This document shows, one piece after another, positions 41,213 to 64,000 of a DNA stretch of 64,000 nt. Below the pieces are notes generated by a model that worked only from the letters and a program-made list of their open reading frames with translations, was not told the DNA's origin and searched no databases. The translations under genes and the position numbers were made by a program. Position 1 is the stretch's first letter. Each line of letters begins with the position of its first letter. Origin of the DNA: an archaeon (GTDB lineage: Archaea; Nanobdellota; Nanobdellia; Woesearchaeales; GW2011-AR9); the NCBI GenBank assembly GCA_030704845.1, contig JAUYKZ010000023.1, forward strand, positions 14,262-78,261, in the 5' to 3' direction.

Positions 41213-41266
41213 AACTTAAAATTAAGATAATCACTTTATAAAAGTTTCTTAGATGTTTTAGAAAAA

Positions 41267-41337
41267 GCCCTCGGCGAGAATTGAACTCGCGACCTTGTCC
41301 TTACCAAGGACACGCTCTACCACTGAGCCACGAGGGC
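41267..41337 (-). tRNA. tRNA-Thr (GGU)
   Basis: Minus strand reads gccctcgtggctcagtggtagagcgtgtccttggtaaggacaaggtcgcgagttcaattctcgccgagggc. Cloverleaf with anticodon loop ttGGTaa. No encoded CCA. Confidence 0.8.
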
Positions 41338-41462: not shown

Positions 41463-41534
41463 TAGGATGCCAAAAATGTCTTCCTAAATGGTTGTATTTT
41501 AAACACAGCGACATTTTTGTGCATAAAAAAGAGT

Positions 41535-41668
41535 GTCGGGGAAGGGATTCGAACCCTCGAACCCACTAAGAGACAGGATATCTTCCAAGGAAGCCAATTA
41601 TCAATAATTGGTGCCTCATCCATGTGGACTTAAGTCCTGCGCATTTGACCGGACTTTGCTACCCCGAC
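41535..41668 (-). tRNA. tRNA-Leu (UAA) with intron of about 49 nt at position 37/38
   Basis: Minus strand reads gtcggggtagcaaag...gcaggacttaag[intron tccacatggatgaggcaccaattattgataattggcttccttggaagat]atcctg-long variable arm-gagggttcgaatcccttccccgac. The acceptor and T arm are canonical. After intron removal the anticodon stem is cagga/tcctg with loop cTTAAga. The intron carries its own ccaattat/ataattgg hairpin. Confidence 0.55.
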
Positions 41669-52944: not shown

Positions 52945-53217
52945 ATGATGTTATATGATGCAGAAGTTCAGAAAGTATTGGATAAAATAAAAGAATCTAA
53001 TGCAAAAACCGTTTGCATTCAGCTACCGGATGGTATGAAACCTTATGCAAAAGAAATTGAAGAAAAGATTAGGGAAGAAACTGGAGCAAGAGTTTTAATC
53101 TGGCTTGGAAGTAATTTTGGTGCTTGTGATATTCCTTTAGGTTTAAATAAAATGGGAGTCGATCTTCTCGTCTCTTGGGGACATAACATTTTCCATAAAA
53201 AAATGGAGGGATGGTAG
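52945..53217 (+). CDS. dph2: Dph2 N-terminal segment (2-(3-amino-3-carboxypropyl)histidine synthase), ends at in-frame TAG
   Basis: VCIQLPDGM...VLIWLGSNFGACD...SWGHNIF aligns with the archaeal Dph2 N-terminus. Confidence 0.6.
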   Translation: MMLYDAEVQKVLDKIKESNAKTVCIQLPDGMKPYAKEIEEKIREETGARVLIWLGSNFGACDIPLGLNKMGVDLLVSWGHNIFHKKMEGW

Positions 53218-53220
53218 AAG

Positions 53221-53970
53221 ATGGAAACATTATTCTTAGAAGCGACTTATTCAGGAACCGTAGAATTATGTCCAGAGACTATTTCTTACCTAACGAAGAA
53301 AGGGTATACCAAGATTGGATTATATGCTTCCGTGCAGTTTGTTGGAAAACTGGAGACGGTAGAATCACAACTTAATGAACTAGGGGTCACTTCGGTTACA
53401 TCACGACCAGATAGAACTCACGTTAAAGGACAATTGTTAGGTTGCGACAATTATCATAATTCTTTAAATTTAGATAAAGATATTCAAGTTTACCTATATG
53501 TCGGCGATGGACGTTTTCATCCTCTAGCTTTAGTTTATGCTCAGAAGGATTCTAATGAGATGAAAGAAATTATTTGTAATGATCCCATTAATAAGAGGAT
53601 GGTTTTAATGGGAATAGAAGACATTTGTACTATTCTTAAAAAATATCGTGGGTCGTTGGTTAAATTCTTCACAGCTAAGATGGTGGGTGTTCTTATTACG
53701 ATTAAACCTGGGCAAGAACAATTTAAACCGGCTCTATTATTAGAGAAGAAATACCTCGATAAAAGGTTCTATTACTTTATTGACAATGTTATATCTTTTG
53801 ACCAGCTCGAAAATTTCAATTTTATCGACGTATGGGTCAATACTGCTTGTCCGAGGGTAGGATTTGACGACCAAGAGAAGTTTGTTAGAGGAGTAATTAA
53901 TCTAAATGATGCTCTCTCGGTCGAGGAGATCCTTGGAAAAGAGAGTGTATTTAATAAAAAAATCCAATAA
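53221..53970 (+). CDS. dph2: Dph2 remaining segment, same frame, ATG one codon after the TAG
   Basis: QLLGCDNYHN, VGDGRFHPLAL and VNTACPRVGFDD align with the Dph2 domain 2/3 cysteine motifs. Confidence 0.6.
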   Translation: METLFLEATYSGTVELCPETISYLTKKGYTKIGLYASVQFVGKLETVESQLNELGVTSVTSRPDRTHVKGQLLGCDNYHNSLNLDKDIQVYLYVGDGRFHPLALVYAQKDSNEMKEIICNDPINKRMVLMGIEDICTILKKYRGSLVKFFTAKMVGVLITIKPGQEQFKPALLLEKKYLDKRFYYFIDNVISFDQLENFNFIDVWVNTACPRVGFDDQEKFVRGVINLNDALSVEEILGKESVFNKKIQ

Positions 53971-54186
53971 TCTCTACTGAGGACAATTCTATATGGATTT
54001 TTAGTGTTCCCTATAATGGATTAAGATTCTAAACTCTGCACTCATATGAAACAATCATTGCTAAAAAGTTCTCGTCAGAGAGTCGTATTCTATCGACGAT
54101 AGGAGAAAGCTTTATATACAATGGTTGTTTAATTCACGTCGAAAGCTAGTCTTTCAAAATAAAAAAACAGAGAGGTGGGATGAAAT

Positions 54187-54570
54187 ATGGCTGAACTTGT
54201 AGCAAAAGTTGGACTTAAAAAAGAGCCTGGATTTCTCTATTTCCTAGACAAAGGCGGAAACGTTGCTCGAGCTCGTATGAGTCGAGTTAAAATGCGAGGA
54301 AAATCCAAGATCGAAGTAGTAGCAAAAGTAGGAGTTAAAAAAGTATCCGGATACCTTTACTTTATTGATAAGAAAGGTAATGTTTCAAGAGCAAAAATGG
54401 CTCGTGGAAGAAAATCTGGAAGCGGTAAGAAAAAAGTTGCTAAAAAGAAAGTAGCAAAACGTAAAGCTGCTCCAAAAAGAAAAGCTGCTAAAAAGAAATC
54501 GGTTAAGAGAAAAGCTGCTCCAAAAAGAAAAGTTGCTAAGAAAAAAGTAGCTAAGAAAAGAAAAAGATAA
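54187..54570 (+). CDS. lysine-rich small protein with a duplicated module of about 31 aa and a histone-H1-like KRKAAPKRK tail
   Basis: ELVAKVGLKKEPGFLYFLDKGGNVARARMSR is repeated as EVVAKVGVKKVSGYLYFIDKKGNVSRAKMAR. Tandem DNA repeats of agaaaagctgctccaaaaagaaaag encode the tail. Confidence 0.5.
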   Translation: MAELVAKVGLKKEPGFLYFLDKGGNVARARMSRVKMRGKSKIEVVAKVGVKKVSGYLYFIDKKGNVSRAKMARGRKSGSGKKKVAKKKVAKRKAAPKRKAAKKKSVKRKAAPKRKVAKKKVAKKRKR

Positions 54571-54610
54571 TTTTTTTTTCTTATTTTTTTTTAATTTTTT
54601 TAATAGTGAA

Positions 54611-58214: not shown

Positions 58215-59108
58215 ATGTTTATAGAAATTAGAAAAAGAGGAAAGAGTAAAAAGTATTATCTTGTTCATTCATATAGAGAAAGTGGTAAAATCAAGAGAAT
58301 TTCTCGTTATCTTGGTTCTAATCTTAACGAGAATAAACTACTAGAATTAGAGAAAAGGGCAGAACAGCATATCTTGGAAGGAATAAAAGAAAGAAGTATT
58401 CTTGAGTTTGAGTTAACTAAAAAAGAGATTGAAGAGTATAAAAAGTATGAGACAGATATTGAAATAAAACATTTACAAACATTAAATTGGAAACGATTTA
58501 CTGAAACTTTTACTTATAACACAAATGCTATAGAGGGTTCAACTGTTGCCCTCTCTGAAGTTAAGGAATTGTTGAGTGGAGAAGAAGAACCTCAAGGTGC
58601 GGACGATATTGAAACTCTTAATGTAGCAAAAGCCGTTGAATATATTCAAAAATCTAAAGAAAAGATAACTTTGAATTTTATTAAGCATCTCCATTTAATT
58701 TGTTTTAAAGGAACTAAGGGGTTTGCGGGTAAGTTGAGAGAAGTAAATGTTGTAATTAGGGATAGTCAAGGAAATGTTGTTCATGAAGGAGCACCAATAA
58801 ATAAAGTAAGGAGTTTGGTTGAAGAGCTTTGTAATTGGTATATTAAACATAAAAATAAATATCCTCCGTTACTTCTTGCTGCCGTCATGCATAATCAGTT
58901 TGAGAAGATACATCCATTTCAAGATGGTAATGGAAGAGTCGGAAGATTATTATTAAATTATGTTTTGTTACAGCACAAATATCCTCCAATTAACGTTCGT
59001 TTACGAGATCGAATTAGGTATTACAAGTGTTTACAAGAATATGATCAAAAGAATGATATCAAGTCTACTTTGAAATTTTTGATTAGTGAATATAAAAAAC
59101 AGTTTTAG
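58215..59108 (+). CDS. fic: Fic/Doc family protein (putative AMPylase)
   Basis: HPFQDGNGRVGRLLLNYVL matches HPFx[DE]GNGRxxR. TAG stop. Confidence 0.75.
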   Translation: MFIEIRKRGKSKKYYLVHSYRESGKIKRISRYLGSNLNENKLLELEKRAEQHILEGIKERSILEFELTKKEIEEYKKYETDIEIKHLQTLNWKRFTETFTYNTNAIEGSTVALSEVKELLSGEEEPQGADDIETLNVAKAVEYIQKSKEKITLNFIKHLHLICFKGTKGFAGKLREVNVVIRDSQGNVVHEGAPINKVRSLVEELCNWYIKHKNKYPPLLLAAVMHNQFEKIHPFQDGNGRVGRLLLNYVLLQHKYPPINVRLRDRIRYYKCLQEYDQKNDIKSTLKFLISEYKKQF

Positions 59109-59138
59109 GTGTCTACGTTTGGATTATGTAGTCACCCT
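59107..59138. repeat. hairpin aggtgtctac-N12-gtagtcaccc followed by a T-run, starting at the fic stop codon
   Basis: Read directly. One mismatch relative to the upstream stem. Followed by cttttttagggg. Confidence 0.5.
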
Positions 59139-59278
59139 TTTTTAGGGGTGGGATTTCATAATAAGAAGGGTATGCCCCCGCCGTACAAAGGCGTCTTATT
59201 CTAAATCTCGATTAGAATGTGATGGTTGTAATTACAATTAAATTGTTGATGTATTTATATATTTCTATTCTGTCGAGG

Positions 59279-59569
59279 CTATTTCTTCATTTGTGTCTCA
59301 TCTGGTACAAATGTCGGGTTGTTAAATGGGTTTAGTATTTGTATTAATGTACCAAAATAACCTTTCTTTTTATCTAAATCTCCTCTGAATAATATAATCA
59401 AAGCGATAGCATTTGGAACAAGAAATTCGGAAAAATCCATGATATTATCAGCTAGAGAAATATCTGGATAAATTAGGGAAATAATGAATGAAGAAATAAA
59501 TGACCCTGTTGCAACTCTAAAAAAAATAATTCCCCACCTGAACCCCTTAAAGATCTGTTCTTCATTCAT
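59279..59569 (-). CDS. small membrane protein
   Basis: Hydrophobic ORF. Confidence 0.25.
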   Translation of the reverse strand: MNEEQIFKGFRWGIIFFRVATGSFISSFIISLIYPDISLADNIMDFSEFLVPNAIALIILFRGDLDKKKGYFGTLIQILNPFNNPTFVPDETQMKK

Positions 59570-60355
59570 TTATTCTTTGGAATTCTGCTTATATTAAAAA
59601 TTGTGTTTACACTTTCCAAAAACCGTTTTACAAACCACTTAAACAACCCCCTCTACTAACCCTGCATGGTAAAATACAAATTTACAACCCATGCGCGAGA
59701 ACTTCGTTATTGTGAAATCTGCGATTAACAACTTAGCTTCCATGAAACTATTCTATGTAAAATTTGCCTAAAAGAAGCTGTCTCAATAATGAAACGAGGT
59801 GATAATCGTGGATAAGATCATGGTGATCTCTCTCTTTATTGGAGCTTTAAGCATTCTTGGGAGTTATATTTTCCTGATTATATCTTTCTTAAGGAAGAAT
59901 TATTTTTCTAGTTCTAAATTTGGAGGATATAGGGTCTGAGACTGCAAAGAATAAAGGAATCGAGGTTCAAAAGCCGTTCCTACTTAATGTTTCAAACATT
60001 GAAGCTTTGAGCATACACACGGAGGTACACGACAATGGAAACGACAAATGAATTTAAGGAAAACATACACAGAAGCAGAGCTTCTGGTACATCCGAAAAT
60101 GAGTTTCGGAATGAACCAATAGTAGAAACACAGATTAGTAAGAGTAAGGATGGGAAGTACGTCTTGCATAAGACAATAATCACAGATATTAAACCGGTGG
60201 GGTATTATCAGAAGGTTATTGGGGGGGAGTAATTCCTCCTTTTAACCAACGAAAAGTTTATAAATAATGTCAACATTTAATGTTTACGATAAAACAGAGG
60301 CAGGTGAATAAGATGGCGAAAAGAGAGAAGAATAATGGTCTGAGGATAGATATAA

Positions 60356-60754
60356 ATGTTAAAAAAAAAGAATATAAAGTATTTGAAACTATTAACTTCA
60401 GAAGATATATTGGATATAACTATTCTGATAGAAACCAATGAAATCAAGAGATTTGCTATCAACTACAGAGCAAATATTCATGATGGATGGCGTGAGATTT
60501 ATCGGGTAGATAACTATCACGGCTATCTACATGAGATGAAATTTTGGCGAAATCAAGAACAAATAATTATCAAAGATAAAAATGGTTGGTCTTCAAAAGA
60601 TATTTTCAATTATTATATCGATGAGGTTACGGAAAACTTTCAAAGATATAGGATATATTTTGATAGAGCATTAAGACAAAATAGAACAGAAAGAAAAAAA
60701 AATGATAAAAATGAAACACGAATTAGAGAAGAAGGAACTAAAAAGAAAGGCTGA
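60356..60754 (+). CDS. hypothetical protein (first gene of a small overlapping operon; possibly starts at 60313 via an A9 tract)
   Basis: An upstream 43-codon ORF beginning at 60313 is in another frame. It overlaps this ORF at a run of nine A residues (60358-60366). Confidence 0.3.
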   Translation: MLKKKNIKYLKLLTSEDILDITILIETNEIKRFAINYRANIHDGWREIYRVDNYHGYLHEMKFWRNQEQIIIKDKNGWSSKDIFNYYIDEVTENFQRYRIYFDRALRQNRTERKKNDKNETRIREEGTKKKG

Positions 60755-61148
60755 ATCAATTAAAGGATTAGTTGATGATATACTTAGTGAAAAAATTGAT
60801 GTGCCAGATAACGCGTTAATTATAGATTTTGATGCAACTCAAAATATCTTTACTAAAAAAAGGATAGAGTTATTAGATACTATTAATTCTTACCAGCCGG
60901 CTTCTGTTCAAGAATTATCAGATCTTGTTAAGAGGAAAAAACAAGCGGTTGATAGAGATTTGAAGATGTTAGAAGAGTTTGATGTGATCACACTTGAAAA
61001 ACGAGGTAAGTTTACTGTACCAACTGTAAAAAGAGAGATTATAATACTCAGCATCAAGAAACCAAAACCACAAACAGAAATCATAATCAGTGCTGAGGTC
61101 TATGTTGATAGTATTAATATTAACAAAATAATGGAGATACCACAATGA
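60702..61148 (+). CDS. winged helix-turn-helix protein (MarR/ArsR-like)
   Basis: SVQELSDLVKRKKQAVDRDLKMLEEFDVITLEKRGK wHTH-like segment. Overlaps its neighbours. Confidence 0.35.
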   Translation: MIKMKHELEKKELKRKAESIKGLVDDILSEKIDVPDNALIIDFDATQNIFTKKRIELLDTINSYQPASVQELSDLVKRKKQAVDRDLKMLEEFDVITLEKRGKFTVPTVKREIIILSIKKPKPQTEIIISAEVYVDSININKIMEIPQ

Positions 61149-61402
61149 CTATTAAAAGAAAAGTAAAACGTGTTGTCGATGGAGATACTTTTGAAGTATT
61201 TAAAGCCGTTAGAGACAGCCATTTTATTCGGTTAGCTGGTGTTAACGCCCCTGAGAAATATCAGAAAGGGGGAATAGAGGCAACAAATAAACTAAGGCGT
61301 TTAATTGAGGGTAAGACTGTTACTTTAGTCCCCACAGGGAGGAGTTATGGTAGGTTGGTAAGTGATGTAAAAAGCAGTGGGAAAAAAGTAAATAAACTAT
61401 AG
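61145..61402 (+). CDS. truncated staphylococcal-nuclease-like (SNase/OB-fold) protein
   Basis: VVDGDTFEV...IRLAGVNAPEK corresponds to the DGDT...RLxGxDxPE core of thermonuclease. At 85 aa it lacks the C-terminal catalytic Arg/Tyr region. ATGA start/stop overlap with the upstream gene. Confidence 0.4.
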   Translation: MTIKRKVKRVVDGDTFEVFKAVRDSHFIRLAGVNAPEKYQKGGIEATNKLRRLIEGKTVTLVPTGRSYGRLVSDVKSSGKKVNKL

Positions 61403-63135: not shown

Positions 63136-63298
63136 ATTACGGTGATCGATGATTGGTTTTAGTCAGTGTTGGTAGAGTGACAAAGAAATAGTGATTATGT
63201 ACAGTTTGTATCATATAATTCTAACTACAACTTAACCAGTTCACGGCCGATGATCTTCTTCGAGTACTTCGCAACCACGTTGAGCATGGTGCTGTACT

Positions 63299-63943
63299 TC
63301 ATGACGAAGAGTGGCGTGTCCTGCTCGTAACGACCGGGATGTTGAGAAAGCCACTCACGCAGGTACTTCGCGGCTCGGTAGCACGAGGTTCGAGGTACAT
63401 ACCCTGGCCATTACTGAACTCTCCGTACCACCCCGTGTCGTCGTCGAAGAGGTCGGAGAGCATCGAGCTGCCGCAGAGGTAGCGCCTCACCAGCACTTGG
63501 TTCAGGACGTTGGGTGCATCGCCACACACGCAATTGACCCCGCAGTGGCAGTCGGCAGGGCAGGACGCGCATGTTTCTCCGCCTCCGCACGCGCCATCGC
63601 CACAGCGGGGTCGCGGGATGCACGAATTGCCGACGCAGTCTTCGTTGGCGGCACACGTGTTAGGACAGCTTCCTCCGCAGCCGTCTGTCCCGCACTCCTT
63701 GTTAGCGCAGCTCCGGACGCAGCCTACACAGGTTCCGTTCAGGCAGCCATTGACACAGTCCTCGACAACGCGGACGTTCTGGCCACAGACATCGAATTCC
63801 CAGAGGTCACCCACGCCGCAGCGTCGACCCGCAATGTTCGGTGCGCAGTAGCCCGGTTGCCCTGGAGATCCGGTACAGGTGTGATCCTGATGACATTGGT
63901 AGTCCCATTCGCAGGGCGGAGTGCAGCGGCCACCCTGGCACAC
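63299..63943 (-). CDS. cysteine-rich repeat protein (CGDG/CxxC repeats), probably N-terminally incomplete at the window edge; GC-rich gene
   Basis: Repeated C-x-x-C-G-D-G-like units (RCGDGACGGGETCASC, CGTDGCGGSC). GC-rich codon usage unlike the rest of the window. The minus-strand frame is chosen over overlapping plus-strand ORFs because of the regular Cys spacing. Confidence 0.35.
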   Translation of the reverse strand: MCQGGRCTPPCEWDYQCHQDHTCTGSPGQPGYCAPNIAGRRCGVGDLWEFDVCGQNVRVVEDCVNGCLNGTCVGCVRSCANKECGTDGCGGSCPNTCAANEDCVGNSCIPRPRCGDGACGGGETCASCPADCHCGVNCVCGDAPNVLNQVLVRRYLCGSSMLSDLFDDDTGWYGEFSNGQGMYLEPRATEPRSTCVSGFLNIPVVTSRTRHSSS

Positions 63944-64000
63944 CCAACCTGGCCGGCATTCGTTATCGACGTTGCAGAGGGAGCACCAGTCGCCGAGTGG

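Follow-up and report, generated by a model that had tools for sequence, protein, structure and literature searches.

The best described small DNA-coating proteins that resemble the protein reported here are Sul7d (Sso7d) and Cren7 of the Crenarchaeota. These are tiny, very basic, all-beta, characteristic of their clade and encoded by stand-alone genes. Sul7d and Cren7 bind DNA via a three-stranded sheet carrying basic and hydrophobic residues, within an SH3-like barrel of five strands. A different group, comprising linker histones, Hc1 and Hc2, the H1-like proteins of Burkholderia and the C-terminus of mycobacterial HupB, is recognized by tails of a particular composition with low-complexity repeats. 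Beta-propeller blades form a further point of comparison, including those of PQQ/BamB and Beta-prop_YycP proteins and of small propellers built from two-blade subunits.

We analyzed a 64,000-nt stretch of archaeal DNA, referred to here as the window, which encodes a 127-aa protein that belongs neither with Sul7d and Cren7 nor with the H1-like-tail proteins; of the features that would mark membership there, only the tail composition is present. Sul7d and Cren7 provide the nearest functional analogy, as the window protein is likewise tiny (its core is about 8 kDa), very basic, predicted to be all-beta, characteristic of its clade and encoded by a stand-alone gene, and we infer by analogy that it may act in a similar manner, although fold comparison did not detect their SH3-like barrel in it. 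The tail shares its composition and low-complexity repeats with the H1-like-tail proteins, is likewise predicted to be disordered, and probably increases affinity for polyanions. The likeness is nevertheless compositional only: the core of the window protein is predicted to be all-beta rather than a winged helix or HU fold, and the tail is dispensable in most members of the two-module family. With beta-propeller blades the protein shares a spacing of 40 aa and a hairpin signature of the form G-aromatic-L-Y-F-x-D-x-x-G, and adjacent blades match it weakly in both sequence and structure, but it differs in having three predicted strands per module and not four, a copy number fixed at two, and extreme charge.

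The gene is an ATG-initiated reading frame of 127 codons, and its coordinates agree with those assigned by the first-pass annotation of the window (Table 1). Lys and Arg account for 50 residues (39%), against five Asp and Glu (4%), and the protein has by far the highest basicity among the 83 non-overlapping ORFs of the window. The 76-aa core formed by the two modules carries a charge of about +15, and the tail contributes about +28.

Table 1. Features of the gene and its flanking signals in the window.
Feature	Position	Strand	Basis or property
BRE/TATA promoter element of archaeal type (putative), GAAAGC TTTATATA	54105..54118	+	Sequence
Stem-loop GAAAG-CTAGT-CTTTC at predicted 5' end of transcript	54141..54155	+	Sequence, leader comparison
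Shine-Dalgarno region GAGAGGTGGGATGA	54170..54183	+	Sequence
Coding sequence	54187..54570	+	127 aa, pI 11.75, net charge about +44
Module 1 (aa 1-36)	54187..54294	+	Alignments, AlphaFold models, hhalign
Module 2 (aa 41-76)	54307..54414	+	Alignments, AlphaFold models, hhalign
K/R/A-rich tail (aa 77-127), predicted disordered	54415..54567	+	Composition, pLDDT
Two tandem units of 48 nt (16 aa), KRKAAPKRKAAKKKSV and KRKAAPKRKVAKKKVA	54457..54552	+	38/48 nt identical
Oligo-T run directly 3' of the stop codon, archaeal terminator-like	54571..54601	+	Sequence

The two modules are clearly related to one another. Residues 2-36 and 42-76 are identical at 21 of 35 positions (60%), and the best-offset score of the 76-aa core was reached by none of 5000 shuffles. 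A profile comparison of the two halves, based on 32 relatives, gave an hhalign probability of 99.8% and an E value of 1.1e-29. Identity between the modules is 62% in the DNA and falls to 40% at third codon positions, which indicates an old duplication with conservation at the protein level; a recent duplication of the module DNA is ruled out by the third-position figure. Both modules are already present in all relatives. Judged from these comparisons, the duplication is ancient and has been maintained by selection on the protein. The first-pass annotation had described modules of about 31 aa duplicated at both DNA and protein level. The duplication stands at the protein level, whereas its trace in the DNA is weak, and the modules are in fact about 36 aa long with an offset of 40 aa.

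Structure prediction with AlphaFold2, using an alignment of 65 sequences, gives pLDDT values of 94-95 for residues 1-76 except in the linker between the modules. The predicted core is all-beta at pLDDT 90-95, with six strands and no helices. Each module contributes three strands, at residues 2-6, 16-20 and 26-30 in module 1 and at residues 43-46, 56-60 and 66-70 in module 2. The invariant residues in the alignments are L17, Y18, F19, D21, K22, G24, V26, M31 and R33 for module 1, and V45, K52, G55, L57, Y58, F59, D61, G64, A69, M71 and R73 for module 2. A model of the core alone has a mean pLDDT of 86.9 and a pTM of 0.70. The tail is predicted at pLDDT 51-73 with no secondary structure, and the model as a whole bears out the original description of a beta-rich repeat followed by a basic, disordered tail.

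Searches for a described relative of this fold were negative. A Pfam scan of the window protein gave no match at E values up to 10, and scans of the protein and its relatives against Pfam, NCBIfam and PHROGs returned only sub-threshold matches or matches of unknown function. PDB sequence searches gave no match, whether queried with the protein alone or with a profile of its family, and Foldseek found no significant structural neighbor. The module, which had not been recognized at first reading, is thus equally unfamiliar to Pfam, NCBIfam, the PDB and the fold libraries. Homology to a known ribosomal protein or to a domain of non-DNA function, looked for as evidence against a chromatin role, was not found. 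For ribosomal proteins there was no Pfam, NCBIfam or PDB sequence match, and ribosome chains appeared in Foldseek only at E ≥1.6; the fold and PDB libraries searched include archaeal ribosome structures. Neither the winged-helix domain of linker histones (Pfam Linker_histone) nor the archaeal histone and Alba folds were found: the latter two gave no Pfam match, and the model is all-beta. Fold comparison did not recover the five-stranded SH3-like barrel of Sul7d and Cren7. Cold-shock/OB-fold and TRAM domains gave no Pfam match, and no OB, CSD or TRAM entries appeared in the fold searches. Some relatives carry a faint precomputed match to PF27482 (Beta-prop_YycP), and PQQ_2/BamB, DUF5050 and TIGR03300 BamB match below threshold. 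The likeness to adjacent propeller blades is consistent but statistically insignificant, and we rejected PF27482, a faint match to Beta-prop_YycP, as a functional label. No known DNA- or RNA-binding domain showed homology or a similar fold. The fold would therefore seem to be one that is predicted with confidence and for which no solved relative was found.

The protein belongs to a large and strongly conserved family of which no description was found. A word-indexed search returned 1,371 relatives at E ≤0.01. Over the two modules, the best 120 of these show 58-80% identity, and all source names among them read "hypothetical protein" with an origin in Woesearchaeota, Nanoarchaeota or Nanoarchaeia MAGs. 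When 1.84 billion cluster representatives were searched exhaustively with a profile, 1,164 clusters (at 50% identity) matched at E ≤0.001, including 441 at E ≤1e-10. In a collection with a single genome for each prokaryotic species, at least 468 matches were confirmed, and almost all of the top 80 are labelled Woesearchaeota or Nanoarchaeota; DPANN homologues, for which the first-pass annotation had proposed a search, are therefore abundant. Literature searches did not find a description of the two-module family. Over the same genome pairs, the median identity of the family protein is 71%, compared with 61% for Dph2, 56% for CarS and 37% for the phosphatidyltransferase. Matches in viruses were restricted to two partial hits on viral contigs, with none in cultured phages or plasmids, and we rejected a mobile-element origin on these grounds.

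A typical family member has 75-100 aa, two modules and a C-terminus of the form ...MARGR(K). The signature V-x-K-x-G-[VI]-K-[KR]-x-x-G-[YFW]-L-Y-F-[VIL]-D-K-x-G-[ND]-[VI]-[AS]-R-A-K-M-[AS]-R occurs twice in family members, the window protein among them; this protein keeps all invariant positions, and more than 100 members share 59-80% identity with it. Exactly two modules are present in 334 of the 356 relatives fetched. Apparent one-module relatives proved to be truncated or frameshifted, or to have one divergent half. The few relatives with 3, 4, 5 or 7 modules are long, and their modules tend to fall into adjacent pairs. From the sequences, it is the pair and not the single module that is the unit of the family. 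Some relatives are fusion proteins. Zinc ribbons recur among the fusion partners and an ASCH domain occurs once. Membrane-anchored partners are OmpA carrying a transmembrane segment, DoxX-like proteins and further transmembrane proteins; the others are a nitroreductase-like domain, a HIT hydrolase and a combination of GAF and RING domains.

Members of the family are also found in bacteria. A search seeded with a GC-rich member retrieved about 90 proteins of 100-150 aa, and the named proteins of this clade come from Myxococcales, Polyangia and Kofleriaceae MAGs. The divergent Myxococcota clade is represented by L094 (3282-3683) and by P0173, P0190, P0298, P0307 and P0345, and all of the sequences inspected consist of two modules and a tail of PAKK/AKKA type. 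One gene of this clade lies between those for DNA polymerase III delta-prime and a PhoH-like protein. A separate bacterial copy of 77 aa, 66% identical to the core of the window protein, occurs on contig JAQUNG010000020.1 (L078, 3081-3314) and again in L079. The L078 copy is located immediately upstream of TilS and FtsH, and has a sigma-70-type promoter (TTGACA-N17-TAAGAT), a Shine-Dalgarno site and a rho-independent terminator formed by a GC-rich hairpin and a run of T. This copy suggests that the gene passed between archaea and bacteria fairly recently.

The tail of the window protein is 51 aa long and contains 29 Lys and Arg and no acidic residue. Its repeats had been described as tandem units of 25-39 nt. 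Tandem Repeats Finder instead reports an array at 54432-54556 with a period of 48 nt (16 aa), 2.6 copies and 79% matches, and with sub-periods of 15 and 18 nt. The array, together with the close identity of its two 48-nt units, points to a recent expansion of the tail. Most relatives have a short tail or none, and among those fetched, the count of tails of at least 20 residues with K+R ≥35% was 100/147. Tails rich in Lys, Arg, Ala and Pro recur on the same two-module core in archaea and bacteria. The comparison with histone H1 made in the first reading holds for composition, as the tail is K/A-rich and predicted to be disordered. It does not extend further: the tail, which is the chief chromatin-like trait of the protein, is absent in most relatives, and the Burkholderia H1-like model NF038053 (hist_H1_lk_Burk) scores only 11.1 bits (E 0.35) on the window protein against a cutoff of 80. 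Neither NF038053 nor the second bacterial H1-like model, NF038052 (Hc2), reaches its curated cutoff on this protein. With one relative of the Myxococcota clade, the NCBIfam H1-like models give an E value of 5e-6 and 26.8 bits, also below the curated cutoff.

The signals flanking the gene are conserved across the 92 homologous loci that we compared. Most of the loci have the GAAAGNTTTAWATAC element upstream of their copy of the gene, and TATA-like elements are present in 74. A Shine-Dalgarno motif of GGAGG/GAGGTG type occurs in 87 of the 92, and the purine-rich ribosome-binding site previously noted upstream of the window gene was confirmed (Table 1). On the downstream side, five or more T residues fall within 45 nt of the stop codon in 86 loci. 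Clustering of all flanking ORFs from the 92 loci revealed no universal neighbor and no conserved operon partner. With promoter, Shine-Dalgarno and terminator signals of its own and no universal neighbor, the gene reads as an independent, free-standing monocistronic unit. The same signals suggest high expression, and the protein is probably abundant.

Between promoter and start codon, many relatives share a structured leader. The stems begin 29-32 nt past the TATA element, and stems of at least 7 bp are found in 45% of leaders compared with 18% of shuffles. Stem-loop leaders occur in L012, L020, L022, L027, L029, L033, L034, L037, L043, L044, L052, L053, L060, L067 and L071, among others. The stem sequence varies by subclade (GAAAAC/GTTTTC, GAAAG/CTTTC, TAAGAC/GTCTTA), and by sequence these differences look compensatory. 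The stem-loop could serve as a stabilizer of the mRNA or as an autoregulatory site.

The commonest neighbors of the gene encode CDP-archaeol synthase, Dph2 and CDP-alcohol phosphatidyltransferase, each in about 20 of the 92 loci, and this neighborhood is limited to a subclade that includes the window locus. Genes for Dus and an S4-domain pseudouridine synthase lie nearby in the window and in some relatives, again only in subclades. No ribosomal-protein family is prominent among the 25 most frequent neighbor clusters, for which Pfam was run on the clusters shared with the window, and ten small ORFs of the window that we examined include no histone or Alba gene.

Other features of the window were recorded in the course of this analysis. 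The Dph2 gene (PF01866) is split by an in-frame TAG into a 90-aa N-terminal part (52945-53217) and a 249-aa C-terminal part (53221-53970), both on the forward strand. A split after ...EGW is also found in 13 related loci, in various frames and with TAA, TGA or TAG stops, and in some of them inserted sequence sets the two parts up to 1.4 kb apart. Because the split is common to these loci, we regard Dph2 as a conserved split gene; a pseudogene and stop-codon read-through are both ruled out by its recurrence. A full-length Rfam tRNA match spans 135 nt at 41534-41668 on the reverse strand, has no ARAGORN call and adjoins a tRNA-Thr at 41266-41337. It is probably an intron-containing archaeal tRNA. 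A possibly mobile or defence-type cluster occupies 58215-61402 on the forward strand. It starts with a gene for a Fic/DOC protein (58215-59108), followed by overlapping genes for DUF7718 (60356-60754) and an HVO_A0114 helix-turn-helix protein (60702-61148), and ends with a short staphylococcal-nuclease-like ORF (61145-61402). The end of the window, at 63250-64000, has 53-64% G+C compared with about 34% elsewhere and contains a cysteine-rich ORF on the reverse strand that seemingly runs past the window end, with no Rfam match. Horizontal acquisition or an assembly chimera are possible explanations for this G+C-rich end.

With a core charge of about +15 and polycationic tails that recur on this core, the simplest explanation is that the core acts on a polyanion and that extra charge is advantageous. 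Since the family occurs in both archaeal and bacterial cells, its partner is likely to be a universal one such as DNA or RNA. Judging from sequence and predicted secondary structure, the 127-aa protein probably binds DNA or RNA, and the proposal that it is a chromatin protein is a plausible and reasonable hypothesis. The reading that we favor, tentatively, is of a small and probably abundant nucleic-acid binder with a DNA-architectural role. Each module of about 36 aa would form a three-stranded antiparallel beta-meander. If strands 2 and 3 pair as a hairpin in the register that we assume (20-26, 18-28, 16-30), residues L17, F19, A27, A29 and M31 would lie on a hydrophobic face together with their module 2 equivalents, and these five residues are invariant or nearly so. 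The hydrophobic faces of the two modules would then pack to give the compact 76-aa core. On the same register, the opposite face would present Y/F16, Y18, V26, R28 and K/R30, with K7, K11 and K12 alongside. Conserved aromatic and basic residues of this sort commonly mark nucleic-acid contacts, and this face on each module may be the surface that contacts nucleic acid. The disordered K/R/A tail would raise non-specific affinity for polyanions in the manner of H1-like tails. Among possible targets, coating or bending of double-stranded DNA as a nucleoid-associated protein (NAP) would be somewhat likelier than RNA binding. By analogy, the Myxococcota proteins also speak for DNA, as all those inspected have H1-like tails typical of nucleoid proteins. 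Against this reading, most family members lack the tail, and no known DNA-binding domain was matched by sequence or fold. Histones and Alba are reported for Woesearchaeota (PMC6136690), so the protein would be an additional chromatin component and not the sole one, with no empty niche to fill.

A possible if somewhat unlikely alternative is that the protein recognizes RNA, either as a chaperone or in association with the ribosomes of its lineage. Single-stranded RNA or rRNA would be contacted by aromatic and basic residues of the beta-sheet, as in cold-shock-domain and TRAM proteins, and the stem-loop in the 5' leader might let the protein control its own mRNA. The conserved Tyr and Phe residues that the alignments place beside Lys and Arg on beta-strands would resemble RNP-type surfaces, and the high conservation, small size and basicity of the family are also typical of ribosomal proteins. 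A leader that stays structured across subclades while its stems differ is in keeping with RNA, as are the fusion of one relative to an ASCH domain and the proximity in the window and some relatives of the Dus and pseudouridine synthase genes, whose products modify tRNA and rRNA. That linkage is nevertheless restricted to subclades, residence in a ribosomal-protein operon was not seen in the 92 loci, and neither sequence nor fold comparison, archaeal ribosome structures included, matched a ribosomal protein or an RNA-binding domain. Myxococcota have a standard set of ribosomal proteins, so the tailed versions found there are unlikely to replace a missing one. Among the fusion partners, zinc ribbons and the ASCH domain are compatible with binding to nucleic acid or another polyanion. 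A generic module for binding or oligomerization would account equally well for the fusions to OmpA, membrane proteins, the HIT hydrolase, the nitroreductase-like domain and GAF plus RING.

A generic module of this kind could be a two-blade fragment of beta-propeller type that self-assembles into rings or binds proteins or other ligands, and not primarily nucleic acid; we consider this decidedly unlikely. The weak matches to PF27482, PQQ_2/BamB, DUF5050 and TIGR03300 do point consistently to blades, and 40 aa is a usual length for a blade. Some relatives have 3, 4, 5 or 7 modules, and an interaction module would be a natural partner in the fusions with membrane proteins, the HIT hydrolase and GAF plus RING. 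All of the blade matches are below significance, however, and three strands are predicted per module where a blade has four. The two-module unit is also nearly invariant and is modelled as a monomer at pTM 0.70, and a propeller fragment would leave the extreme positive charge and the recurrent polycationic tails unexplained. It is extremely unlikely that the protein is a peripheral membrane protein whose basic and aromatic residues dock on acidic archaeal lipids. CDP-archaeol synthase and CDP-alcohol phosphatidyltransferase genes adjoin the gene in about 22 of 92 loci, including the window, and several relatives have the module pair beside transmembrane segments. Against this, the lipid-gene neighborhood is confined to one subclade, the protein has no amphipathic helix or known lipid-binding domain, and homologues occur in bacteria, whose lipids differ from those of archaea. 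Nucleic-acid binding with a DNA-architectural role also has a bolder form, which we regard as very improbable, in which the two-module core is a new chromatin fold class of DPANN archaea and some bacteria. Blade-like modules would assemble into a propeller- or pinwheel-like ring whose polycationic rim and tails wrap DNA, giving a nucleosome-like, non-histone particle. The C-terminal domain of gyrase A, a DNA-wrapping beta-pinwheel, would be comparable in principle.

Few uncultured archaea are as widespread as the Woesearchaeota and their relatives, and a large share of their small proteins lacks an assigned function. The family described here is among the best-conserved small proteins of Woesearchaeota and has neither a Pfam model nor a solved relative; the window protein itself is short and should be soluble. 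Should the family prove to be a major binder of DNA or RNA, it would represent a new structural class among nucleoid and RNA-chaperone proteins, and this in a lineage for which attention has gone only to histones and Alba. It would also exemplify the passage of a protein of this type between archaea and bacteria.
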